Origin: a virus
Virus record (IMG/VR): IMGVR_UViG_3300005077_000018
Coordinates: 1,686 to 65,685 of that record
DNA: 64,000 nt
Reading direction: 5' to 3' (one strand)
Part shown: piece after piece, positions 2,464 to 54,160 of the stretch
How the letters are laid out: each line of letters begins with the position of its first letter
How positions within the stretch are numbered: the stretch's first letter is position 1
Notes under the pieces: generated by a model
Database searches by the model: none
Told to the model about the DNA's origin: nothing
What the model saw: only the letters and a program-made list of their open reading frames with translations
Translations under genes and position numbers: made by a program

Positions 2464-3773
2464 GAGCTTTTGCTGATCCAACTCTAGATCCCAGAAATGC
2501 TCCGTATCAGCCCTTCGGGGTTGCGGAAGATTTGCTGTATGACCAGAGCGATCAGATCATTCTGTGCGGTCCATCGGGAACGGGCAAGTCCAGAGCTTGT
2601 TTGGAGAAGCTTCATCTGATCTGCTCCAAATACGCCGGAACCAGAGCTTTGATGGTTAGAAAGACTAGAGCTTCTCTAACTCAGTCAGCTATGGTGACTT
2701 TTGAGAAGATGGTCGTTCCTCAAAATGACTCGGTTTCTTTTAGAACGGGAGAGCAAGAGTACAGATATGTGAACGGTAGCGTCATAGCTGTAGGCGGAAT
2801 GGATAAGGCAATCAAGATCATGTCTACGGAATACGACATAATCTATGTCCAGGAGGCTACCGAGCTAAGTGAAGAGGACTGGGAAACTCTAACAACCAGA
2901 GCCAGATTCGGAAGAGTTCCATACAATCAGGTTATCGGGGACTGCAATCCGTCATTTCCTTTCCATTGGATCAAGCGGAAATCTGACAGAGGAGAGCTCA
3001 AACTCTACAATAGCAGACATGAGGACAATCCTGTTCTATTCAATCAAATTTTGAGGGACTGGACTCCCAAGGGAAGAGCCTATCTAGCTAAATTGGAGAA
3101 GCTGTCGGGTGTACGGTTCAAGAGATTGAGATTGGGAATCTGGGCCGCCGCTGAGGGAATGATCTATACGGAGTACGATTCTAACGTTCATCTACTGGAC
3201 AGATTTCCCATTCCCGCCGAGTGGGATAGATATTGGGTCGTTGACTTCGGTTTCACAAATCCCTTCGTATGGCAAGCCTGGGCGATTGATCCTGAGGGAA
3301 GAGCCTACCGTTTCGCTGAGATCTACCGTACTCAGCTCCTTGTGGAAGATGCCGCCGCTATGATTTCTGCTTGGAGAAGAGAGAACTCTGAGCTTCCTCC
3401 AGCGGCTCTAATTTGCGATCACGACGCAGAGGACAGAGCTACTCTTGAGCGACATCTCAATCTGACTACGGAGCCAGCTATAAAGAATGTCAGCGGCGGT
3501 ATTCAGACGGTCAAGGAGAGACTGAGGATCAGAGAAGACGGGAAAGCCAGAATGTATTTTCTGAGAGACTCAGTTTGGGATGTCGATGAGGAATTGGTTG
3601 ATGCTATGAAACCCTACTCTACTGAGCAGGAATTTGATGCGTATGAGTGGGCTGATTCCAGGAAGCGTGACGAACCCAAGAAAGTTGATGATCATGGCAT
3701 GGACTGTACCAGATATCTTTCGGTTCATCTTGATAACTTCGTAGACGCATGGTCTATGGGAATGAGTTCATAG
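2457..3773 (+). CDS. terL: Terminase large subunit (PBSX-like)
   Basis: Walker A GPSGTGKS, Walker B-like YVQEATE, DCNP, nuclease VDFGFTNP and DDHGMDCTRY. Confidence 0.95.
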   Translation: MLRAFADPTLDPRNAPYQPFGVAEDLLYDQSDQIILCGPSGTGKSRACLEKLHLICSKYAGTRALMVRKTRASLTQSAMVTFEKMVVPQNDSVSFRTGEQEYRYVNGSVIAVGGMDKAIKIMSTEYDIIYVQEATELSEEDWETLTTRARFGRVPYNQVIGDCNPSFPFHWIKRKSDRGELKLYNSRHEDNPVLFNQILRDWTPKGRAYLAKLEKLSGVRFKRLRLGIWAAAEGMIYTEYDSNVHLLDRFPIPAEWDRYWVVDFGFTNPFVWQAWAIDPEGRAYRFAEIYRTQLLVEDAAAMISAWRRENSELPPAALICDHDAEDRATLERHLNLTTEPAIKNVSGGIQTVKERLRIREDGKARMYFLRDSVWDVDEELVDAMKPYSTEQEFDAYEWADSRKRDEPKKVDDHGMDCTRYLSVHLDNFVDAWSMGMSS

Positions 3774-3792
3774 ACTTAGCAAGGAGATTGAC

Positions 3793-5763
3793 ATGGTTCG
3801 TTCAGACCAGGATAAATTCAAAACACAGGAACCGGAAGATTTCTTCGCTAATATGGTGAAGATTTATACCGATATAGACGAGGAGAAAGAACCTCCGTAC
3901 TCTAAGGATAGTCGTGCTCGGGATAAGTGGCTCATAGAATTTGCGAGGAGAGAGCCGCATTTGAGCGGAATACTGTCAAGTGTTACTGCCATTGATAAGA
4001 ACAGAGGGTGGTCTCTAATCGGATCGATGCGTCAGGTTAACAAGTACGCACGAATTCTTCACAATTTCAGAGTGTCTCCCGGTCTAAAGGGATGGCGTCC
4101 AGCTTTCGCTCAGCTGTCGGCATCATTCTGGGGCACGAATCTGGGCGCAGTTGTTGAAGTCGGTAGAGTGGGAGTTGATGGACCTGTTCAGGAATTCTAC
4201 ACAGCAGATCCGACTAAATTCGTCCTCGCAAAGGATCAAAAATTCCCTATTTACTATTATCCTTCCAATGGAAAGAGAATGAAGTGGAGAGATTCAGATT
4301 TCTTCAGGATTTGTTCTCTTCCTTCCATTCTCGAGGAGAACATGGGAATAGGATTCTGTGCCGTCGATCGTGCTGTTCAGCTTGCGAGACTGATGCTGGC
4401 TCTTTTTCGTCATGATGAGGAGATGCTTCTTTCTCGTGCTCCAAGAGGCCTTCTGCTTCTGTCCGGAATAAAGCGCGATCAATGGGAATCCGCTATGAAA
4501 GCAAGAGACGCGGAGCTGGATCAGGGTCAAATGAAGTATTTCGGAGCGATAGCCGTTCTTGCCTCAGCTTCCTCTACCGTTGAGGCGAAGCTCATGGCCC
4601 TTTCTCAGCTTCCGGCGGGTTTCGATCTGAAGATATGGATGGATATGATCATGTACGGATATTCTCTATGCTTCGGATATGACGCATCGGAATTCTGGCC
4701 GGTTCAATACGGTTCTTTGGGGAGAGGAAATGAAACACAGATTCAGCACGAGAAAGCAACCGGAAAGGGTCGTCTTGACTTCGTTCTCGGATTCCAGGAA
4801 CAGGTTACTGATTTTCTGCCTGAGTCTCTTGACTTTGTTGTTGAGCAGCGTGATGATCAGGGAGATCTTACTCGTGCGTCCGTTATTCAGGCGTGGGCGA
4901 ATGTTGCCAAATCTCTGTACACATCTCAATTGAACGGAATTCCTCTGGTAACGAATGAGGAGGCTAGAGTACTTCTGGCCGAGTACGGAGTTATTCCAGC
5001 TACGTGGAGTCCTACCGCCGATGCTTCTGCTACCGATATCGATGATGCTGACGACGAGGAAGTGGTCGATCAACCCGAAGACGAGGAGTCTGCAGGAGGA
5101 TCGTCAGAAGGGAACATGAAGCCAAAGTCAACCAGTCCTGACTCGGCTTCTCCCACCGCTGAGATGCTTCGGTCAGCTTACAAAACTCGAAGAATTCAAG
5201 ATTTAAGAGAGGTTGTTCTTCAGAAAGCTTCTGTGTTTGAAGCCGCGAGAAGATTTCCTAAAGAACCTATTGTTCAGTTTACTTACCCCGGGAATAATAT
5301 CCTGGAGCTGTGGAAATCAGGAGAGGATTTGATGAAACCTAGAGTTTGGGCTTCCATAGGAGATGTTGTTAGAAGAGCAATTCAGGAGAGTCTTCCTCCG
5401 GCAGTTGTCGGATCTGGTCTTGTTCAATCCAATCAGCCGACTCAACCTCAGATTGTGGTTGTAGATACTGAGGGAAGAATAGTTCAGCAAGCACGTCAAG
5501 AACCTTCCATAGTTGTGAACGTGCCCGAGCAGAATTTCCAGGTTGACTTGGAGAGGCTCGGTGAAGTCATAGCCAAACAACTGAAACAGGCTTCTGATCC
5601 TACGATAACTCTTACTCCGATCATTCAACTTCCAGAAATTCCTGTGATCGTAGAGAATAACGTAACTATCCAGGAGCCAGTTACCGAGGCGGTCGTAGAG
5701 GTCAACAGAGGATTCGACGGGAAGATTAAATCGGTAAAGAAAACTGAAAAGGTCATACGATGA
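3793..5763 (+). CDS. Portal protein with acidic linker and C-terminal extension
   Basis: Directly after terL, 656 aa, helical portal-like composition. Confidence 0.8.
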   Translation: MVRSDQDKFKTQEPEDFFANMVKIYTDIDEEKEPPYSKDSRARDKWLIEFARREPHLSGILSSVTAIDKNRGWSLIGSMRQVNKYARILHNFRVSPGLKGWRPAFAQLSASFWGTNLGAVVEVGRVGVDGPVQEFYTADPTKFVLAKDQKFPIYYYPSNGKRMKWRDSDFFRICSLPSILEENMGIGFCAVDRAVQLARLMLALFRHDEEMLLSRAPRGLLLLSGIKRDQWESAMKARDAELDQGQMKYFGAIAVLASASSTVEAKLMALSQLPAGFDLKIWMDMIMYGYSLCFGYDASEFWPVQYGSLGRGNETQIQHEKATGKGRLDFVLGFQEQVTDFLPESLDFVVEQRDDQGDLTRASVIQAWANVAKSLYTSQLNGIPLVTNEEARVLLAEYGVIPATWSPTADASATDIDDADDEEVVDQPEDEESAGGSSEGNMKPKSTSPDSASPTAEMLRSAYKTRRIQDLREVVLQKASVFEAARRFPKEPIVQFTYPGNNILELWKSGEDLMKPRVWASIGDVVRRAIQESLPPAVVGSGLVQSNQPTQPQIVVVDTEGRIVQQARQEPSIVVNVPEQNFQVDLERLGEVIAKQLKQASDPTITLTPIIQLPEIPVIVENNVTIQEPVTEAVVEVNRGFDGKIKSVKKTEKVIR

Positions 5764-8820: not shown

Positions 8821-11800
8821 GTCTAATTATACGCTCTACAAGAATAGCGGCTCCGACTTCTACCGGAAATCAAGATATAACAATCTCTGATTTCGGAACT
8901 CCGAAATTTGCTATTTTACAGATAACGAATGCTACACAGAATGCTACTTCTGTTAATCATTTAGTTTATGGATTTGGCATGGTCGGAAACAGTCAACAGA
9001 TGGCTGTTGGAAGAACCGACGAGCATAATCTCGATACTTCTGACGCTTACGATACGAATAGTACCAGCAAATGTCTGATCATTCTAAATCCAGCGGATGG
9101 AACTGTTGATGGAGAAGCAGAATTCGTAGAGTGGATAACCAATGGAATAAGAATAAATTGGACCAATGCTCCTTCTTCAGCCTATCTTGTTACCGCTACT
9201 CTTTTCGGAGGAACTGATCTCACGAACGTGTATTTGGGATCAGTAAATCCGAGCTCAACTTTGAATAATACAGTAGATGTCACTGCTCCTGGATTTCAAC
9301 CTAATCTAGTATTTACTGCCGAGTCTTTATCTTCAAGCACAGCTTACGGTGGAGTTAGTCTCGGAGTAGTTCATAGCGGAATTTCTGTGACTCAGGGGTC
9401 TATCCAGGCCATGTCCAGAGATGCTAGAGGAACTACTCAATCAGCTCTTAACATATCCGATTCTTACGGATCAGGTATAGCTCTTTTGACCGCTAATGGT
9501 TATCAGGCTGAGTTTGGTAGTTTTGATGCCAGCGGATTCTCTATTACTACCAGGGGAAGTGCGAATGCCGTAGGAACTCTGTTTTATGCGGCTTTAGCGA
9601 TAACTAATTTTGATATAAAGGTTGGATTCCTCTCTACTCCCACCTCTACCGGAAGTCAGGGAATTACAGGAGTCGGATTCAAACCTCAATTTCTGTATAC
9701 TCTATTCGGTGGAGCAGAAGCATACGACACTAATTACGATGATGATGATGGATGCTCTTTTTCTGTAGGTGTTGCTGATTATCTCAACGAGTATTCCTGC
9801 ACTATAACTACAGATATAGATGCCGGAACTTCAGATACGGAATCTAGAGTTGATGATAGTCTTGTAAGAATAAATAATCCGGATGGTTCCGTTCAAGCTC
9901 AGGCTTCGTTCACTCAATTTGACAATGACGGTTGGACTTGGAATTTCTCTTCAGTTGATGGTACTGCTGGGAAAGTTGGAGTTTATCTGGCAATTGAGGA
10001 AGAAGTTTCTACCGGATCTCCTAGCTCGTCGGTTTCTCCTTCCGGTTCACCCTCAAATTCTCCTTCTGTTTCTCCTTCTGTTTCTCCTTCTGGTTCTTCC
10101 TCCAACAGTCCTAGCAATTCTCCGTCGGTCTCTCCGTCGTCTAGTACCTCTCCTTCGAGTAGTGTGAGTCCTTCTCCTAGTGTAGGAATTTCTACTTTTG
10201 TGAATGGTTACGGAGGAGATGTAAATTCCGCTAAAGACGCTCTTCTTAATGGTAGAATTCCAGAGTTGGGTCTTGAGGATCACGGAAGTTTCGAGGTAGA
10301 TGATCAGCAGAGAGGCTTGATATTTTTCAGTTGTTCAGCTGTTCCTGCAGGAAGTCATTGTTCTTCGGCTACTCTCGAGATGTGGAAAAATGATTCGGGA
10401 GGAGTCAACGTTTGCGAAGTTGAGATTTACAAAGTAGCTCTAGCTAATAAGAATTGGATTCTGGGAGAGGGAGTAGGAAATCCTGCTCCTGAAGATTGTC
10501 CAACTTGGGAAGCTCTAGCCGCCGATGGAAGCGGAGGAGTGAAAGTTGCTTGGGCGGGTTCAGCCGGTTTGTCTACCGCTGGAACAGACTACAACTCTAC
10601 CATGATTGGATCTTTCATATTTTCCGGTTCTGACGCCGCAGGGACTCACTACACTTGTGAGTTGGATCCGGATTCTGTAGAGGAGTGGTTCGGGTCGGAC
10701 GATTATAATGCTGGACTGCTTCTGATATTCCCTGTATTCACAGGAAATCATCTTACTCAATCAGAATATGGGACAACTGGATACAGACCAAAACTAACCA
10801 TTGAGTATATAGAAGCTAGCGATTCTCCATCTCTATCTCCGTCGGCCTCTCTTTCTCCATCTTCTAGCGTTTCTCCCAGTGAGTCGGCAAGTTTATCTCC
10901 CTCATCCAGTATTTCTCCATCGTCTAGTAGTTCTAGCTCTCAGTCTCCTAGCGATTCTCCTTCGCTTTCTCCCTCTTCATCTCTCAGCCCTAGTAGCTCT
11001 GAGAGTCCTAGTGTTTCTCCTTCCAGCTCAGGCTCTTCGTCTCAGAGTCCCTCTGTTTCTCCGTCCAGTTCGAGCTCTGCAAGTCAATCTCCAAGCTCTT
11101 CTTTGTCTCCCAGCTCTTCTGTGAGTCCTTCTCAGAGCTCGTCTAATTCTCCTAGTTTATCTCCGTCAAGTTCGGAATCTGCTAGTCAGTCTCCTAGCTC
11201 TTCGAATTCAGCTAGTCAATCTCCTAGCTCGTCTACCTCTCCAAGTTCGTCAGTTTCTGCAAGCCAGTCGTCTAGTTCGTCTCCAAGTTCGTCGTCAAGT
11301 ATTTCTCCCTCTCCGTCCATTGGAGATATTCCGTGGAATCTGCCTTCGTCAGTCAATGTCTATATAGGATCCATCGATTCCGGATCCGTGTGGTCTACAC
11401 ATGACGATGACGATCAGAAGTTTGTGGTCTCTGGAGTCATAGGAACTCCAGCTTTCATGATCGATTTAGTTTTTGGAGAGGGAGAGGAAGTTCCGTCGTT
11501 TAATCTTCTACTTACCGTTAGAGGATTCTACTCCGGAAATCCAGGTCATAACGTAAAACTTCGTCAATATAACTGGGCTACAGAAGATTGGGATGATGTT
11601 ACTTCGGATGTTCAAGATTTTCCGGATCAAAGCTCCGATCAGGAATACGAATTTGATCTTATAGCAGATATTGATCATTTGAGTGATACAGGACTTGTGT
11701 CTGTAGCCATAGTCCACACTACCTCAGGAACTGCGGACGATCAGCTTAGTATAGATCATGCGTTCTTGACTCTTCTTGGAAGTCCTAGTAGTAGCGTCAG

Positions 11801-20530: not shown

Positions 20531-20545
20531 AATCGAACGTTGTAG
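20531..20545. repeat. Dispersed 15-mer AATCGAACGTTGTAG, copy 1
   Basis: Identical at 51438-51452 and 56551-56565. Confidence 0.9.
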
Positions 20546-46609: not shown

Positions 46610-46842
46610 TAGTTCTGACTTGTATCGACTGCAGAGGATTAGTGGAATCCAGAGGAGGATTCCCTTACTGCGAAAGATGCGGTAAGTTCTTGTATATGTA
46701 TCAGATTAGATTTACCGTGGTTCCTACGCCAGAAAACTGGACAGAAAAAGAGGAGTTTTTAGATGTCAGAACAACCCCAGAAGGATTACATAACGACATT
46801 CGATCAACTGGAGAGATGCAAGGGTCATCCGATATCTCTTGA
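46606..46842 (+). CDS. Small Zn-ribbon protein
   Basis: CIDC...CERC; overlaps the polA start. Confidence 0.5.
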   Translation: MIVLTCIDCRGLVESRGGFPYCERCGKFLYMYQIRFTVVPTPENWTEKEEFLDVRTTPEGLHNDIRSTGEMQGSSDIS

Positions 46843-48727
46843 CACAGAAACCACAGGTCTGAATCCCTGGATGGACGATCTGATCGGAGTTTCGTTTTAT
46901 TGCGAATCTCTGGGTTTAGGCGGATATATTCCCACTTTGGATTCGGAAAGCAGAGTTACGGCAAAGAGGATCTGCAGTGAATTTCCAGACAAGAACGTGA
47001 TTGTTTTTCACAATGCGAAATTTGACCTTCACTTTCTTCGAATGGACCCCAATCTTCATGACTGGACTATAATGGATACTACAGTCATGCTTCATCTTCT
47101 AGACAGTAGACAACCCAAGGCATTAGTTCTTGCGGAGAAACGTTGGCTTGGAACTGAAAGCAAGAGAGACAAAGTTGAAGCCGCTCCTGCTAGAACAAAA
47201 ATATGGAATTGGCCGATAAGGATAATTTCGGCCTACGCCGCCAATGACGCAAAAGTCACATGGCAACTTGCTCAAAAACTCTGGCCCTATCTCAAGGAAA
47301 TGGGTCTTACCGATCTTTTCTGGAAAGATATGGAATACGTGAAAACTTTGTATTCTATAGAAGATTACGGAGTTCTAATTGACGAGGAGTTCATTGAGGA
47401 ATCTGCCGAAAAGCTACAGGGTCATCTAAGAAATATGGAACGTGAGCTCATGGATAGTTGCGGAGCTCAGTTCAATTGGAGAAGTCCTCAGCAGCTCAGC
47501 AGGGCAATCTATGATGGTCTCGGAATTCCTAAACCGAAGAATCCTTTCGCTGACGCCGATGGAGTTGATCGAAGTCGTTTTGCTGACGCAGGTAAGTACA
47601 AATCAACTTGCACAGCTACCTTCATTCTTACAGAAAAGATCCATCATCCTCTAGGAGAGCTTATTTCCTCGATGAGAGAAGCCGATAAACTTCGGAAAGC
47701 CTTCTTGAAGTGGTTGGAATTGAAGGACGAAAATAACATTCTTCACACAAACTTCAATCAAACTGGAACCAGAACTGGCAGATTATCCTCGTCAAGACCC
47801 AATCTTCAAAACATAGCCTCTCAAACCAGAGGAAGATTCACTCAGAGCGTCTATACCGGATCTGTGGATCGATCCGACGAATTCAACATGAGAAGAGCAG
47901 TAATTCCAAGACCTGGAAACTGCTTCATATCGGTAGACTATAAGCAGATGGAAATGAGAATGTTCGGAATTCTTAGCAAAGATCCATTCATGCTCAATGC
48001 TCTGATTGCCGGAAAGGATGTTCATCTGGAGATTGCTCTGAAAGTATGGGGAGATTGCGGTGAACACATGAACAAAGTTCATCGCGAGTGGTCCAAAACA
48101 ATAACATTCGGTCTTATCTACGGAATGACTCTCGGCTCTCTTCAGTATAAACTTAATATGACTAGAATTGAAGCCGCCAAAGTGACCGATCAATATTGGG
48201 GTCAATTCCCAAGAATCAAACCCTGGATGGACGAAATAGTTGAATCATGCAAACTTGACGGGTTCCTGAGATACTGGAGTGGAAGAATCTGGAAAGAGGA
48301 AAATCCCATTGACATGTACAAGGGATGCAACGCTCTTATTCAGGGAGGATGTGCTGATCTTCTTTCAATAGCCGCCATGAGAGTGCATGAATGGATGAGA
48401 AAGCAACCAAATCACAGATTGATCAATCTGGTTCATGACGAAACAATTAGCGAAGTTCCTGTCGACGACATTCTTCGATCGGCAAAATTCGTTTCGGAAA
48501 CTATGCAAGTACCTGATCTATTCGGAATTCCCTTCGCTACAGATGTGAAAATAGGACATTCCTACGGAGACATGGTAAAAGTTTCCAAAGATGTTTTGAA
48601 TGATCCTTCAAGAACTTCTCTGTCAATGGAGGAAGTATTCCAGGAAACTCCGGTTGCCGTAGCTGAGATTCCTGACGCGATAGATTTTGATGACTCGGAT
48701 GAAGACGAAGATTCTGAAGAGTCTTAA
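46763..48727 (+). CDS. polA: Family A DNA polymerase with 3'-5' exonuclease
   Basis: LDTETTG, HNAKFD, TGRLSSSRPNLQNI, VDYKQME, KTITFGLIYG, VHDE. Confidence 0.97.
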   Translation: MSEQPQKDYITTFDQLERCKGHPISLDTETTGLNPWMDDLIGVSFYCESLGLGGYIPTLDSESRVTAKRICSEFPDKNVIVFHNAKFDLHFLRMDPNLHDWTIMDTTVMLHLLDSRQPKALVLAEKRWLGTESKRDKVEAAPARTKIWNWPIRIISAYAANDAKVTWQLAQKLWPYLKEMGLTDLFWKDMEYVKTLYSIEDYGVLIDEEFIEESAEKLQGHLRNMERELMDSCGAQFNWRSPQQLSRAIYDGLGIPKPKNPFADADGVDRSRFADAGKYKSTCTATFILTEKIHHPLGELISSMREADKLRKAFLKWLELKDENNILHTNFNQTGTRTGRLSSSRPNLQNIASQTRGRFTQSVYTGSVDRSDEFNMRRAVIPRPGNCFISVDYKQMEMRMFGILSKDPFMLNALIAGKDVHLEIALKVWGDCGEHMNKVHREWSKTITFGLIYGMTLGSLQYKLNMTRIEAAKVTDQYWGQFPRIKPWMDEIVESCKLDGFLRYWSGRIWKEENPIDMYKGCNALIQGGCADLLSIAAMRVHEWMRKQPNHRLINLVHDETISEVPVDDILRSAKFVSETMQVPDLFGIPFATDVKIGHSYGDMVKVSKDVLNDPSRTSLSMEEVFQETPVAVAEIPDAIDFDDSDEDEDSEES

Positions 48728-48729
48728 CA

Positions 48730-48903
48730 ATGGAGGTTCTTATCTGTCCTTTCTGCGACTCCATATTTCTTCAAGAGTATGATGCTGGAGACGAATGTCC
48801 GGAATGCGAACTAGGAGTCCTCATATCATTCGATGAGTATTTAGAGAGAATAAGCTCCTCATTTGGAGAAGCATTCTCATTCTTCAGAGGTTCAGATGAG
48901 TGA
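48730..48903 (+). CDS. 57-aa Zn-ribbon protein
   Basis: CPFC...CPEC; not in the ORF track. Confidence 0.6.
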   Translation: MEVLICPFCDSIFLQEYDAGDECPECELGVLISFDEYLERISSSFGEAFSFFRGSDE

Positions 48904-51382
48904 ACTAGACGAAACTGCTGAGCTTCTTCTGGACATATTTGGCGGAAATCCGTACAGAGCGGTAGCCTCTTCTACCGGAAGAGATATTTACTATGCTCCA
49001 GTGGACGTTCCCCTATCTCTGGACGATTTGAAGAGACATCTATCCGGGGAAATATGTTTGGGAGCGTATCAACTTCTCTCCGGATCAGACGTTGTGAATT
49101 GGTTGGGATTCGACGTCGATAGCGTTGATCTTGACAAGGCTAGAGAAATCGTAAGAAAAATCCAAACCCATCTTAACAACATTCCTCATGCGGTTGAATT
49201 TTCCGGGGGTAAGGGATATCATATACTCATATTTCTAAAATCTCCTCTTCCAGCCGTCAAAGCTAAGAAGATTGTAGACTGGGTGAGGGAAACTGAGGGA
49301 TTTGCCTCTACCGGATCAGTTCACGTTGAATGCTTTCCGAAACAAGACAGGCTCACAAAATCTAGGCCAAAGGGAAATCTTCTGAAGATTCCGTTAGGAG
49401 AGCATCCTAGATCTCACGCGAGATCAATATTCGTAGATCCGGCTAATGGATGGGAAAACGGTCCATCAATTGATCCGGTGTCTACACTCAGAGCCAAAGC
49501 AGACATAGATGATCTGATGGCAATAATCAATGAGGGTCCTGATCCAACTACTCAATTGGTTGAGCTCATAGGTCAATATTGGGAATCCGGAAAAAGACAC
49601 GACTTAGCTCTGTTTCTGAGCGGATACCTAGCTCATGAAGGATGGGGAGTTGACCAGGCAAGAGATTTGATGCTTCAAATCGTAAGAACGACTGGAGACG
49701 ACGAAGAATTCAATAGACTTGCTACCGTAGAAACTACTTTCGTAAAACATAAGGAAGGGAAATCTGTTAGAGGAAGACAGGGTTTAGGGGAAATTCTTCC
49801 AGTATCAGCTATGCAAAAGCTGACGGAATTGGTCTCCAATCTAAGAGCTCCTGACACGGTAAGACAGATAGACGACATAAGATTCACAAAGAGTCGTCCT
49901 CCGATAGAAAATGCAAGATTATCAGCGGCAACCATGTGGGGAATACTCAATGACGAAGGAAGTAGATTATTTCAAACATCTGAAGGATTTGCTTATTGGT
50001 ATAATGCTTCAGACCATACAGTGACTGAAACAGGCTCTGAAATGTGGAAGTCTATTCTCAATAGACTTTTCGGAATGAATCCCCACGATAATTTCAGTAA
50101 ACTTACAACTCAGGAACTTCATCTCCGAACAGTCAGAGAAGCTCCTATAGTCCCTGTAGAGACTAGAACATTCTGGTCGGAAGCGGCAGAAAAGTTGTAT
50201 GTGAATCTTGGAGGTCCTGAGGTATATGTTCTAAACGGAGAGTCGATCGACAAGAGCTATAATGGAGAGTGTGGTATCATGTTCGTTACCAATCAGAACG
50301 GTAAGTACATAGAACCAGACTTTGAATCTAAACCAGTTGACTGCTGGAATTTTCTTACGAATGATCTGAGCTTCAAATCAACTACGGAAGCTCCTTCAAG
50401 ACCTGCAGAACAGAGAGAACTTCTCAAAGCATGGCTTCTGGCCTTCTTCTTCCAGGAGTTGATGCCAACTAAACCCATTCTTGCCATGCTAGGACAACCA
50501 GGAAGCGGAAAAACTACAGCTATCAGAAGAATTCTACGAATCGTTGAGAATCCTGATAGTGATGTGCTTGGGGTTCCAACTGACAAGCAAGATGCTTTCA
50601 GAGCTTCAATCTCGTCGCATCGTCTCCTCGTTCTTGACAACCTCGAGAAATCGGGAGCCGGATGGATGGTTGACATGCTCAATAAACTATCTACCGGAAA
50701 TACAATTGAGCTCAGGGAACTGTATAAAACTAACGCCAGACATTTGATAGCTCCTAAATGTTTCGTAGCTTGTACTGCTGTGAATATGCCTTTCTCCGAT
50801 GAAACTCTATTTTCAAGACTTCTAGTTCTTGAGATGGATCAGCTTCAGGAACCTATGGCAGAGCATCTTATTCAACGGAGAATAAGAGAAAACGGTCCGG
50901 CTATATGGGCTGATCTTCTTCGTAAACTGAACGATATAGTCTCTCAGATCAAGACCTACCGTAATCCAAGAGCTCCGACTAAATCAAGACTTGTAGACTT
51001 CAACGTCTTCTGCGATAGGATAAAAAAGTCTTACGCGGTAAATGGAGAAATGTTGATGATGGGTCTTCTTAGTATGGTAGATGCTCAGCTCAGACAGTTG
51101 AAAGAAAGCTCTCAAGCTGTAACTTTGATTGAAGAATGGATAACTTCTAGACCGCATGAAGCTGAGGAATGGAAGTCTTTCCAGGAGTTATACGCCGCTT
51201 TGAGCCTGATGTGTCAAGCAAGGAAAATAGATTTCAGATGGAAGAATGCTCTAGGACTCGGTAGGCATCTATCGACTCTGAAGGAAAGACTGATTGCGGA
51301 TTTCGGGGCCGAGTTTTCTGAAGTCGAGTCGAAGGAATCGGCTAGATCTGTGACGAAAGTGAGATTTAGAATAAATGTGTAA
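48896..51382 (+). CDS. AEP-type primase fused to P-loop ATPase/helicase
   Basis: GFDVDS, EFSGGKGYH, GNLLKIPLG, GQPGSGKTT, LVLDN. Confidence 0.9.
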   Translation: MSELDETAELLLDIFGGNPYRAVASSTGRDIYYAPVDVPLSLDDLKRHLSGEICLGAYQLLSGSDVVNWLGFDVDSVDLDKAREIVRKIQTHLNNIPHAVEFSGGKGYHILIFLKSPLPAVKAKKIVDWVRETEGFASTGSVHVECFPKQDRLTKSRPKGNLLKIPLGEHPRSHARSIFVDPANGWENGPSIDPVSTLRAKADIDDLMAIINEGPDPTTQLVELIGQYWESGKRHDLALFLSGYLAHEGWGVDQARDLMLQIVRTTGDDEEFNRLATVETTFVKHKEGKSVRGRQGLGEILPVSAMQKLTELVSNLRAPDTVRQIDDIRFTKSRPPIENARLSAATMWGILNDEGSRLFQTSEGFAYWYNASDHTVTETGSEMWKSILNRLFGMNPHDNFSKLTTQELHLRTVREAPIVPVETRTFWSEAAEKLYVNLGGPEVYVLNGESIDKSYNGECGIMFVTNQNGKYIEPDFESKPVDCWNFLTNDLSFKSTTEAPSRPAEQRELLKAWLLAFFFQELMPTKPILAMLGQPGSGKTTAIRRILRIVENPDSDVLGVPTDKQDAFRASISSHRLLVLDNLEKSGAGWMVDMLNKLSTGNTIELRELYKTNARHLIAPKCFVACTAVNMPFSDETLFSRLLVLEMDQLQEPMAEHLIQRRIRENGPAIWADLLRKLNDIVSQIKTYRNPRAPTKSRLVDFNVFCDRIKKSYAVNGEMLMMGLLSMVDAQLRQLKESSQAVTLIEEWITSRPHEAEEWKSFQELYAALSLMCQARKIDFRWKNALGLGRHLSTLKERLIADFGAEFSEVESKESARSVTKVRFRINV

Positions 51383-51407: not shown

Positions 51408-51452
51408 TTTTATATGGCTTGTGTATTTTACGCATATAATCGAACGTTGTAG
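51408..51452. repeat. 45-nt dispersed element, copy A
   Basis: 40/45 identical to 56521-56565. Confidence 0.9.
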
Positions 51453-51934: not shown

Positions 51935-52010
51935 GGGCCTCTAGCTCAGTGGTTAGAGCGGACGGCTCATAACCGTTTGGTCGCTGGTTCGATCCCAGCG
52001 AGGCCCACCA
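51935..52010 (+). tRNA. tRNA with CAT anticodon, likely Ile2 (lysidine, reads AUA)
   Basis: Cloverleaf GGGCCTC/GAGGCCC, loop CT-CAT-AA, TTCGATC T-loop, encoded ACCA; resembles ileX-type more than Met tRNAs. Confidence 0.9.
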
Positions 52011-52323: not shown

Positions 52324-52396
52324 GCTCTCGTAGCTCAACGGACAGAGCATCTGCCTTCTAAGCAGAGGGTTGTGGGTTCGAATCCCACCGAGAGCG
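52324..52396 (+). tRNA. tRNA-Arg(UCU)
   Basis: GCTCTCG/CGAGAGC acceptor, TCTGC-CT-TCT-AA-GCAGA anticodon arm, GTGGG-TTCGAAT-CCCAC T arm; CCA not encoded. Confidence 0.92.
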
Positions 52397-52400
52397 CAAG

Positions 52401-52564: not shown

Positions 52565-53140
52565 ATGAAAACACTACTCAATGCTTTGTTTAGAGCGCCA
52601 GTTCTAGTTATGGTAGCTCTGTCGCTGGCTCTGAGCGGTTGCTTTGGAGCTGTCAACCTCCCGGCCAATACTGAGGCTATTCTCTACTATACAGCGACTT
52701 CCGTTGGACCGAGAACGGTAGCCTTCGGCATCTCCCAAGCTCTCGCCGACAAGCCTGGAGCAGAGATTTTGATGAAGGGATCCCAGTATATCTTCCTATG
52801 GACCCAAGAGGGCATAGGGACCGCTATGTGGGCGATAGATCTCAAGAGTGGTACTGCGACCTGGGACGTCATTAAAAACCTAAATTTGGGAGGTCAAATC
52901 GGGAACTTCCGAGCAGTTTCTGATTTGAAGGCGTGGTTGATGAGACCGGAAAATGGGTGGACTATAACTACAGGATCCGCCCTAGCGTCGACTGCCAGAT
53001 CATTATTGACCTCAGCAATTTCTGCCGTTTCTTCGTCTACGCTTTCTCTCTATATGCTTACTCCGACAATGATGTCAGGATCTCAGGTTCCATGGGATCA
53101 CCTGATGCCCCCGGACGACTTCGAAATTCCACAGAGTTAG
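52565..53140 (+). CDS. Predicted lipoprotein
   Basis: Signal peptide with lipobox LSGC. Confidence 0.7.
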   Translation: MKTLLNALFRAPVLVMVALSLALSGCFGAVNLPANTEAILYYTATSVGPRTVAFGISQALADKPGAEILMKGSQYIFLWTQEGIGTAMWAIDLKSGTATWDVIKNLNLGGQIGNFRAVSDLKAWLMRPENGWTITTGSALASTARSLLTSAISAVSSSTLSLYMLTPTMMSGSQVPWDHLMPPDDFEIPQS

Positions 53141-53155
53141 GCACTCTAAACGAGT

Positions 53156-53211
53156 GAGAGTTGCTTGGAGCACGGATCCATGATTCGTCCGGTTCGATTC
53201 CGGAACTCTCC
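53156..53211 (+). ncRNA. Miniature tRNA-like element
   Basis: GAGAGTT/AACTCTC acceptor-like stem, CCGG-TTCGATT-CCGG T arm, CAT-loop hairpin. Confidence 0.55.
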
Positions 53212-53237
53212 TTTAATCTTTTTCTAAAGGAGATGAA

Positions 53238-53624
53238 ATGCTAGAAAGATTGATTCGGCTTTTGGTGGAACCCGTTCAGCGGGAAATATCGATTCGTCAG
53301 ATTGCTCGAGATTCCGGAATGAATTTGAGAGTTCTTCGCGACTCTGCGGATCTTCTTGACACGGTATACAGATTTTGTAGCAAGATGTCAATAAAACTTG
53401 ACGATCAATACAGTCTGGATACCAGAAATAGAGCACTTCTATTCTGCAGAAATCTTTTGGCTGTCCTGGTAACTGTGTCAGATGCCGAAGATTTAGAGGA
53501 GATGAACAGAGTAATAGACGGAACCAGCGAAATACTCTACTCTCTTATGGAGAGATCGTCGGAACCGGATAATCTTCTTCTGTACAAACAGTTCGAGGAT
53601 ATCGCTCGAGGAGACAGACTATGA
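53238..53624 (+). CDS. Hypothetical protein
   Basis: AAGGAG RBS. Confidence 0.65.
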   Translation: MLERLIRLLVEPVQREISIRQIARDSGMNLRVLRDSADLLDTVYRFCSKMSIKLDDQYSLDTRNRALLFCRNLLAVLVTVSDAEDLEEMNRVIDGTSEILYSLMERSSEPDNLLLYKQFEDIARGDRL

Positions 53625-54160
53625 ATCTGGATTTTATAACGTCTGACGAAATCTTCGTTATAGACACGGAAACTACTGGCTTGGGATCTACAGCTGAAGC
53701 GGTTCAGATAGCCATAGTAGACTACTATGGAAATATCAGATTCGATCAGCTGATTAAACCAACCTATCCCATTCCGATCGAAGTTTCCACAATTCATGGA
53801 ATACTCAATTCAGATGTCGAGAAGGCTCAAACACTTCACTATTACTGGGATATGATCAGACATCAGTGGATAGATGGAAAGGTTCTGACCGGATATAACG
53901 TCAACTTCGACATGAGAATTCTAACTACTACCTTGACTGCCAGAGATCCGGAAATAGCGAGAACCAGAATGCCTACTCCTCTTATGATTCTTGACGTCAT
54001 GCTTCTGGTCAAACATCATTTCAGACTCGAAAAATTTGTCAGTCTCAAAAAAGCTGTGGAACTTCTGGATCTTCCTCTTTCTTCCGGAGATGAATTCCAT
54101 ACGGCTAGAACTGACGCCGTAATGACAGCTATGGTTCTGAGAGAAGTTCTGAGCCTATAA
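53621..54160 (+). CDS. DEDDh 3'-5' exonuclease (DnaQ-like)
   Basis: IDTETTG, GYNVNFD, HTARTDA. Confidence 0.92.
   Translation: MNLDFITSDEIFVIDTETTGLGSTAEAVQIAIVDYYGNIRFDQLIKPTYPIPIEVSTIHGILNSDVEKAQTLHYYWDMIRHQWIDGKVLTGYNVNFDMRILTTTLTARDPEIARTRMPTPLMILDVMLLVKHHFRLEKFVSLKKAVELLDLPLSSGDEFHTARTDAVMTAMVLREVLSL

Follow-up and report, generated by a model that had tools for sequence, protein, structure and literature searches.

Structures in the shape of transfer RNA (tRNA) are well known as punctuation marks in the RNAs of mitochondria and in a small number of long eukaryotic RNAs. Stable RNAs C and D from the tRNA cluster of phage T4 and the mascRNA of MALAT1 are likewise tRNA-like and non-decoding, are co-transcribed and are released by tRNA-processing enzymes. 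In plant mitochondria, t-elements have been located by the motif GGTTCRANYCC; their ends coincide with the ends of messenger RNAs (mRNAs), and it has been proposed, and in plants partly shown, that they direct the RNase P and RNase Z cuts at those ends (PMC1920247). A Y RNA of tRNA-like form, whose acceptor stem has 7 bp, is a substrate for cleavage by RNase P (M1 RNA) and receives CCA (PMC4201824). Here we describe a miniature tRNA-like cloverleaf of 55 nucleotides (nt) plus a discriminator C, found on the + strand at 53156..53211 of a 64,000-nt stretch (the window) that comprises bases 1686-65685 of a 70,023-bp IMG/VR virus record, an uncultured phage judged 95% complete. From its anatomy, we tentatively propose, as the likeliest of several readings, that the element is a maintained, non-decoding processing or regulatory signal of the t-element kind, derived from a tRNA(CAU).

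The element is delineated by its sequence, its minimum-free-energy fold, the mitochondrial (-mt) mode of ARAGORN, a descriptor scan and the T-arm motif. All the parts named in the original prediction, which had been made without database searches, are present: an acceptor of seven Watson-Crick pairs (GAGAGTT at 53156-53162 with AACTCTC at 53204-53210), a vestigial D arm (GCT-TGG-AGC, 53163-53171) with a UGG loop, an anticodon-like arm (ACGGA-TCCATGA-TTCGT, 53172-53188) with CAT at 53179-53181, and a T arm (CCGG-TTCGATT-CCGG, 53189-53203). As predicted, the sequence leaves no variable region and encodes no CCA, the discriminator C at 53211 being followed by TTT. The four arms comprise 19 pairs with zero junction bases between them. 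In the isolated 56-mer, the cloverleaf is both the minimum-free-energy and the centroid fold (-20.7 kcal/mol, z = -2.2), an energy equalled by 5 of 200 shuffled sequences. The reverse strand folds worse (-15.4 kcal/mol, z = -0.9) because of one G-U pair, and this modeled difference weakly favors an RNA read from the + strand. The acceptor abuts a T arm that carries the T-loop consensus (T54 T55 C56 R57 A58), as in the top half of a tRNA, and the motif GGTTCRANYCC has three matches in the window, one in each of two real tRNAs and one in the element (GGTTCGATTCC, 53191-53201). The acceptor core GAGAG/CTCTC is also that of the tRNA-Arg acceptor of this phage (GCTCTCG/CGAGAGC; 52324-52330/52389-52395) with the strands swapped, which may be coincidence.

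Standard tools for tRNA detection do not recognize the element. Standard ARAGORN calls only the two real tRNAs in the window, the -ps80 setting offers only an implausible 89-nt alternative, and Rfam RF00005 (gathering threshold 29 bits) gives no match to the element even at E <= 10, in the region or in the whole record. In the relaxed-mode check suggested with the original prediction, the metazoan-mitochondrial mode of ARAGORN returns an mtRNA-Met(cat) of 56 nt at exactly the coordinates of the element, while the standard mode misses it, and the mitochondrial call is accompanied by nine others in the window that neither standard ARAGORN nor Rfam confirms. Because of these nine calls, we rejected the mitochondrial-mode call as stand-alone evidence and gave it no weight. 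We relied instead on a descriptor consisting of a 7-bp acceptor, an abutting T stem of 4-5 bp with a TTCRANN loop, and an interior of two hairpins with short linkers. The full descriptor matches only the two tRNAs and the element in the window; a looser version confined to the top half adds two other sites. In 40 Mb of Markov-1 sequence of the window's composition, the rate is 7.4 per Mb for the top half (7-bp acceptor and abutting T arm with a TTCRANN loop) and 0.15 per Mb for the four-helix layout as a whole, so that about 0.02 chance matches to the layout are expected on the two strands of the window; for the tRNA island of 2 kb, where the element lies, the expectation is about 3e-4. The element is very unlikely to be a chance fold. 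Since some chance cloverleaves are to be expected when many windows are scanned, the decisive arguments are its place, its strand and its sequence relation to a resident tRNA.

The island lies downstream of the primase gene, and every member is on the + strand, in the order 105-amino-acid (aa) open reading frame (ORF), tRNA(CAT), 50-aa ORF, tRNA-Arg(TCT), 191-aa lipoprotein gene, element, 128-aa ORF and exonuclease gene. The tRNA(CAT) (51935..52010, +) is a full-length phage tRNA with an encoded CCA, detected by ARAGORN and by Rfam (69.7 bits); the tRNA-Arg(TCT) (52324..52397, +), also detected by both programs, is a conserved anchor of the island in related phages. The element occupies the coding strand of the 97-nt gap between two same-strand orphan genes, one for a 191-aa protein with a predicted signal peptide and a lipobox LALSGC (52565..53140, +), the other for a protein of 128 aa (53238..53624, +) that starts 26 nt after the element. 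Its distance from the preceding stop codon, 15 nt, resembles those of the two real tRNAs, 19 and 11 nt.

A structure-based alignment with tRNAs of the phage group, scored over 32 retained interior positions and 14 acceptor positions, relates the element most closely to the resident tRNA(CAT) at 51935. This tRNA is identical to it at 9/9 positions of the D arm, 7/8 of the anticodon stem and 12/15 of the T arm, that is, at 28 of the 32 interior positions (87.5%), and at 6/14 acceptor positions. The corresponding values are 8/9, 2/8 and 10/15 (interior 20/32, acceptor 2/14) for the window's tRNA-Arg, 5/9, 3/8 and 10/15 (interior 18/32, acceptor 2/14) for the tRNA(CAT) of the related locus L005, and 9/9, 0/8 and 8/15 (interior 17/32, acceptor 4/14) for that of locus L002. 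Of the three positions at which the T arm departs from that of the resident tRNA, two make up a single compensatory pair, and the acceptor retains its seven pairs although four of them have new bases on both strands. A covariance model built from the element finds the resident tRNA(CAT) as its sole other match (12.6 bits) in 177 kb of window and related loci.

Related loci point in the same direction. A search with the primase identified 9 loci in IMG/VR and 26 in metagenomes, with 31-74% amino acid identity (most 58-74%) and representing about ten lineages. A tRNA-Arg(TCT) after the primase gene is a common feature of these loci. In the lineage of L002 and L017, a tRNA-Met(CAT) follows about 200 nt after the tRNA-Arg. 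In another lineage (L005, L019, L030 and L036), whose primases are 62-66% identical to that of the window, the tRNA-Arg is followed by a 190-aa lipoprotein gene and then by a full-length tRNA-Met(CAT), which is the order of the window with a tRNA in the element's place. The L005 lipoprotein gene (9430-10002) encodes a signal peptide and a lipobox cysteine in a protein of about 190 aa, but a comparison with the window lipoprotein revealed no significant similarity (BLASTP E = 78; shuffled Smith-Waterman z ~1), and therefore the equivalence of the two slots is positional only, resting on gene order, size and lipobox. The full-length tRNA(CAT) in this slot argues that the element descends from a tRNA gene, and, together with the alignment, descent from a real tRNA gene of the phage's tRNA(CAU) lineage is well supported.

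The element is 17 nt shorter than the resident tRNA(CAT). A hand alignment of the two indicates that the element lacks positions 8-9, C13-A14-G15, about four D-loop bases with G22, G26-G27, U43 through G49, and C65. If this alignment is right, each stem base that was lost lost its partner too (pairs 13:22, 27:43 and 49:65). The symmetrical loss in three stems, combined with an acceptor that was rewritten yet is fully paired, favors a maintained RNA over a neutral relic and suggests that the fold has been under selection and has not simply decayed neutrally. The original prediction had named a full-length tRNA in relatives as the sign of simple decay; such a tRNA is indeed found in the L005 slot, but simple decay fits the element poorly because 19 of its 19 pairs are intact, three pairs appear to have been lost on both sides and four acceptor pairs have changed without unpairing.

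As far as its sequence and predicted fold can tell, the element is not a working tRNA, in agreement with the earlier judgment that it is too short for a canonical one. It is missed by standard ARAGORN and Rfam, and its anticodon loop, UCCAUGA, has C33 and G37 and is self-complementary: U32-A38 and C33-G37 can pair, and RNAfold adds these two pairs to the anticodon-like stem, giving 7 bp and a triloop of CAU, where a functional 7-nt loop would be open, with U33 and an unpaired purine at 37. U33 is nearly universal in tRNAs, and the Met and Ile2 tRNAs carry A73 where the element has C. The variable region measures 0 nt (at least 4 nt in canonical tRNAs) and the D stem 3 bp with a 3-nt loop (canonically 4 bp with 7-11 nt). 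Bacterial translation is not known to use mini-tRNAs of this kind. On the other side, CAT is centered in a 7-nt loop on a 5-bp stem, the mitochondrial mode of ARAGORN names the element a tRNA-Met, and armless tRNAs are reported to function in some animal mitochondria (PMC6158502, PMC2797822). We nevertheless regard an aminoacylated mini-tRNA that decodes AUG or AUA as exceedingly improbable.

What the element retains makes up the top half and elbow of a tRNA: all four helices, each of them perfect, together with the UUCGAUU T loop and the D-loop GG. Because the acceptor/T stack and the elbow nucleotides were kept, recognition by the enzymes that process tRNA ends is the most economical job that can be assigned to it. 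Of the three ideas offered with the original prediction, a processing signal for RNase P or RNase Z fits the anatomy best, since the element consists of a 7-bp acceptor on a canonical T arm, lies 15 nt past a stop codon and would belong to a polycistronic unit with two real tRNAs. The second idea, a decoy for nucleases that target a CAU anticodon, fares badly, as the predicted fold presents a 7-bp stem with a CAU triloop and not a 7-nt loop. The third, a YrlA-like module, was rejected along with any Y RNA identity: TROVE has no match in the 70-kb record (control genomes were matched), so that the phage record carries no Ro60/TROVE gene, and no extended Ro-binding helix is visible in the element. 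A tmRNA (transfer-messenger RNA) tRNA-like domain was likewise rejected, pair 3-70 being G-C and not the alanine identity pair G3-U70, and ARAGORN reporting no tmRNA; the T arm has a 14-bit partial match to cyano_tmRNA, against a threshold of 70.

The proposed processing signal would act as follows. The element would be transcribed in the polycistronic message of the replication module, along with the two real tRNAs, and host tRNA end-processing enzymes would recognize it, with one cut by RNase P at G53156 and a second, by RNase Z or a different nuclease, following C53211, so that the element would serve as punctuation separating the lipoprotein message from the downstream message. The 3' acceptor strand could have a further role. 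A perfect 9-bp inverted repeat with a 9-nt loop (TCTCCTTTA, 53207-15, and TAAAGGAGA, 53225-33; 53207..53233, +) appears in folds of the element with its context and buries the Shine-Dalgarno sequence AGGAG (53228-32) of the 128-aa gene. This hairpin and the 3' acceptor strand share 53207-10, and the hairpin therefore competes with the cloverleaf. The acceptor strand would thus double as an anti-Shine-Dalgarno arm, and cutting the element off would unmask the ribosome-binding site: the predicted energy of opening the site is 5.0 kcal/mol (11.2 in a longer context) and falls to 1.8 if the RNA starts at 53212. These values are predicted from thermodynamics alone and take no account of tertiary contacts or of the order of folding during transcription.

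More speculatively, the locus raises the possibility that phages can shrink one of their own tRNA genes to a four-arm "micro-tRNA" of 55 nt, kept by selection as an RNA that does not decode. Such an RNA could be a counterpart of plant mitochondrial t-elements that couples host tRNA-processing cleavage to the unmasking of a ribosome-binding site, or else a mimic of the top half or elbow of a tRNA, directed at some tRNA-binding factor of the host. If the element is maintained and processed, tRNA-shaped mRNA punctuation would extend to tailed phages. It would also mean that a tRNA gene can be reduced to about 55 nt with every helix in place, which bears on the minimal in vivo substrate of bacterial RNase P, RNase Z and CCA-adding enzymes, and would reveal a simple regulatory logic in which an excised tRNA-like plug frees the ribosome site of the next gene. 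If the element is a relic, it would be a tidy case of tRNA gene replacement and decay in an island churned by homing endonucleases, of local interest only.

Several observations weigh against a maintained processing signal. The element is known from a single sequence in one genome. The covariance model found no homolog of it in the 35 related loci and five whole records, exact and degenerate DNA patterns found none in IMG/VR, and blastn against 50,697 cultured phages returned only T-arm words of unrelated tRNAs (E >= 2); as records nearest to the window may lie outside these searches, the negatives are no proof that the element is unique. The 3' CCA is missing, and the T stem has 4 bp (or 5 with a 6-bp acceptor), giving an acceptor-plus-T stack of 11 bp where the canonical one has 12. 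In contexts of 100-180 nt, the cloverleaf lies 2-4.5 kcal/mol above the predicted optimum, in which the hairpin wins, and the cloverleaf has a probability of about 0.0001-0.01. The map of deletions rests on a hand alignment to one presumed relative. Finally, the islands of relatives carry tRNA-like debris and homing-endonuclease genes, which shows that decay of tRNA genes occurs there. The only weak match of the covariance model in the related loci (G004:3944-4002, 15 bits) was rejected, having two broken acceptor pairs and overlapping a 72-aa ORF.

Judging from their gene content, the islands of related phages are a hotspot of turnover. Genes of the homing-endonuclease type directly adjoin tRNA genes in two of them. 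In L020, a GIY-YIG gene (3593-4087; Pfam 2e-7) starts 2 nt after the tRNA-Arg, and in L005 an HNH gene (10127-10363; 4e-7) starts 4 nt after the tRNA-Met(CAT). L026 contains a bare T-arm hairpin (CCGG-TTCAAAT-CCGG, 2629-2643), 11 nt after the tRNA-Arg, which is without an acceptor partner and looks like a tRNA remnant. A 94-nt tRNA-like element that remains below threshold (RF00005 20.5 bits, E 0.047) is found at 9206-9299 of L005 and also in L019, L030 and L036, ending 8 nt before the tRNA-Arg; its T arm is canonical, a D arm is present and its acceptor is extendable to about 11 bp, with 38 nt where the anticodon arm would be expected, and all three positions that vary among these four near-identical contigs fall in the D loop. 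In L024, a 93-nt element (5104-5196), 84 nt after the primase gene, combines a 7-bp acceptor (TTAGCGG/CCGCTAA) with a 5-bp T arm (loop TTCGAAC) and has no recognizable D or anticodon arms (fold z = -2.3); it is missed by ARAGORN and Rfam and is not conserved in the other loci.

In such an island, the element could be a dead relic, that is, a tRNA(CAU) pseudogene that has been shrinking since the intact tRNA(CAT) at 51935 took over, its perfect helices reflecting a recent origin. We consider this unlikely but the main rival reading, as a full-length tRNA(CAT) stands in the corresponding slot of one related lineage, an intact paralog lies 1.2 kb upstream, the endonuclease genes of L020 and L005, the T-arm remnant of L026 and the sub-threshold element of L005 attest to turnover, and no homolog that would show conservation of the element turned up in the searches. 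However, at least six separate deletions would be needed, and every lost stem base has lost its partner too; all remaining pairs are intact, and both members of four acceptor pairs have changed against an interior identity of 87.5%, where neutral decay should leave unpaired substitutions and asymmetric deletions. An improbable alternative is that the cloverleaf is incidental, and that the sequence serves translational control of the 128-aa gene by the hairpin over its ribosome-binding site, perhaps opened by translation of an upstream ORF or by alternative pairing. The perfect 9-bp repeat over the Shine-Dalgarno sequence is the predicted optimum in context, and by a rough estimate a gap of 97 nt would contain a repeat like this by chance with a probability of about 0.003-0.005. 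There is also a possible upstream ORF of 15 codons (53180..53227, +), whose ATG is the CAT of the loop shifted by one base, with a GGAG (53167-70) nine nt upstream and a stop codon, TAA, inside the hairpin arm that precedes the 128-aa gene. Nevertheless, the ORF is not supported as a gene: in the cloverleaf, its GGAG and start would be hidden inside the D-like and anticodon-like hairpins, the GGAG is weaker than the AGGAG of its neighbors, and an open frame of 15 codons is expected by chance about half the time. Control by the hairpin, moreover, would account neither for the T and UGG loops nor for the 7-bp acceptor or the match to tRNA(CAT) at 28/32 positions.

The retained top half and elbow nucleotides would also suit a decoy or sponge for a tRNA-directed defense of the host (an anticodon nuclease, an acceptor-end nuclease or a tRNA sensor) or for a tRNA-binding enzyme, and phage tRNA genes are known counter-measures to tRNA-cleaving defenses. 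Yet the anticodon loop is predicted to be closed (C33 and G37; pairs 32-38 and 33-37), the element has no promoter of its own, and it is a single copy for which neither the related loci, the IMG/VR patterns nor the cultured phages yielded a family, so that we judge a decoy quite improbable. We consider it very improbable that the fold arose by chance, or that the element is an intrinsic terminator or a fragment of a host tRNA of the attP type. Cloverleaf-like folds arise at the background rate given above and are to be expected in any scan that covers many windows; the T arm with its T-rich tail scores as terminator-like; and phage attP sites often contain tRNA 3' ends. Against all three stand the strand of the element and its location within a tRNA island, the canonical form of its T loop and the sequence match to the resident tRNA. 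In a terminator scan with a loose consensus, the T arm and tail pass (5 sites in all, 2.7 expected), but the tail, CUCUCCUUUAAUCUUUUU, is an interrupted T tract and the helix it follows closes a branched fold. An attP fragment was rejected, because there is no match to the Phage_integrase domain anywhere in the 70-kb record and a search of one genome per species, for 185,579 species, gave no tRNA with the 20-nt T-arm/acceptor end, only two chance matches outside tRNAs.

By its predicted gene content, the virus is a lytic tailed phage. The window encodes a terminase, several glycosyltransferases, a tape-measure protein, a helicase, a PD-(D/E)XK nuclease, ThyX and a DNA ligase, and the replication genes around the island include a family-A DNA polymerase (46763-48727), an AEP-type primase (48863-51382) and a DnaQ-like exonuclease (53621-54160). 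The N-terminal domain of the primase matches PF22548, a Pfam family named for the TOTE conflict system AEP domain (1.6e-22), and is followed by a weak, sub-cut-off match to DUF5906. Neither the 191-aa lipoprotein nor the 128-aa protein has a homolog in IMG/VR or among 5.8 billion proteins, nor a match in Pfam or PHROG. An exact 15-mer, AATCGAACGTTGTAG, occurs at 51438..51452 (+) and again at 20531 and 56551, three copies where 0.07 would be expected in the window; these copies may be phage promoters or regulatory sites. Those at 51438 and 56551 flank a same-strand block of about 5 kb that contains the tRNAs and the element and is compatible with a single transcription unit. The resident tRNA(CAT), with its encoded CCA and the acceptor pairs C4:G69 and C5:G68, appears to resemble Escherichia coli tRNA-Ile2 closely, and the "tRNA-Met" may thus be a lysidine-type tRNA-Ile(CAU) for AUA, partnered with tRNA-Arg(UCU) for AGA. 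Between the lipoprotein stop codon and the element lies a small hairpin (CACTC-TAAAC-GAGTG, 53142-53156), the last base of which is the acceptor G1, so that it competes with the first acceptor pair. Read-through out of the lipoprotein gene was rejected, as its TAG at 53138 is backed by an in-frame TAA at 53147.

Comparison with known systems places the element closest to the plant mitochondrial t-elements. Both are tRNA-derived, non-canonical cloverleaves with a well-kept GGTTCRANYCC T arm, located in an untranslated gap beside protein genes, on what for the phage element would be a long transcript. In contrast to t-elements, the phage element is found in a bacteriophage, has 55 nt where they have about 74, consists of four helices with zero junction bases and overlaps a hairpin that masks a ribosome-binding site. 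It shares with the resident tRNA(CAT) the order of the arms, the 7-bp acceptor, the T loop UUCGAUU, the D-loop GG and the central CAT, and differs in lacking positions 8-9, 26-27 and 43-48, in its 3-nt D loop and its D and T stems of 3 and 4 bp, in C33/G37, discriminator C and the absence of CCA, and in going undetected by Rfam and standard ARAGORN. The YrlA and other bacterial and phage Y RNAs offer an acceptor-like stem with D and T mimicry in a non-decoding RNA (PMC4201824), unlike the element in having a Ro-binding helix and a Ro60/TROVE partner gene, while the element has an anticodon-like arm. The miniaturized mitochondrial tRNAs of nematodes and mites are similar in their length of about 50-56 nt, their reduced arms and their detection only in the mitochondrial mode of ARAGORN, yet they are without a D or T arm, no longer have a canonical T loop, and are aminoacylated and serve in decoding with the help of adapted factors (PMC6158502, PMC2797822); the element has kept the canonical T loop and four arms, has a defective anticodon loop and belongs to a bacterial virus. 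Finally, the non-decoding RNAs C and D of T4 and the mascRNA differ from the element in size and architecture.

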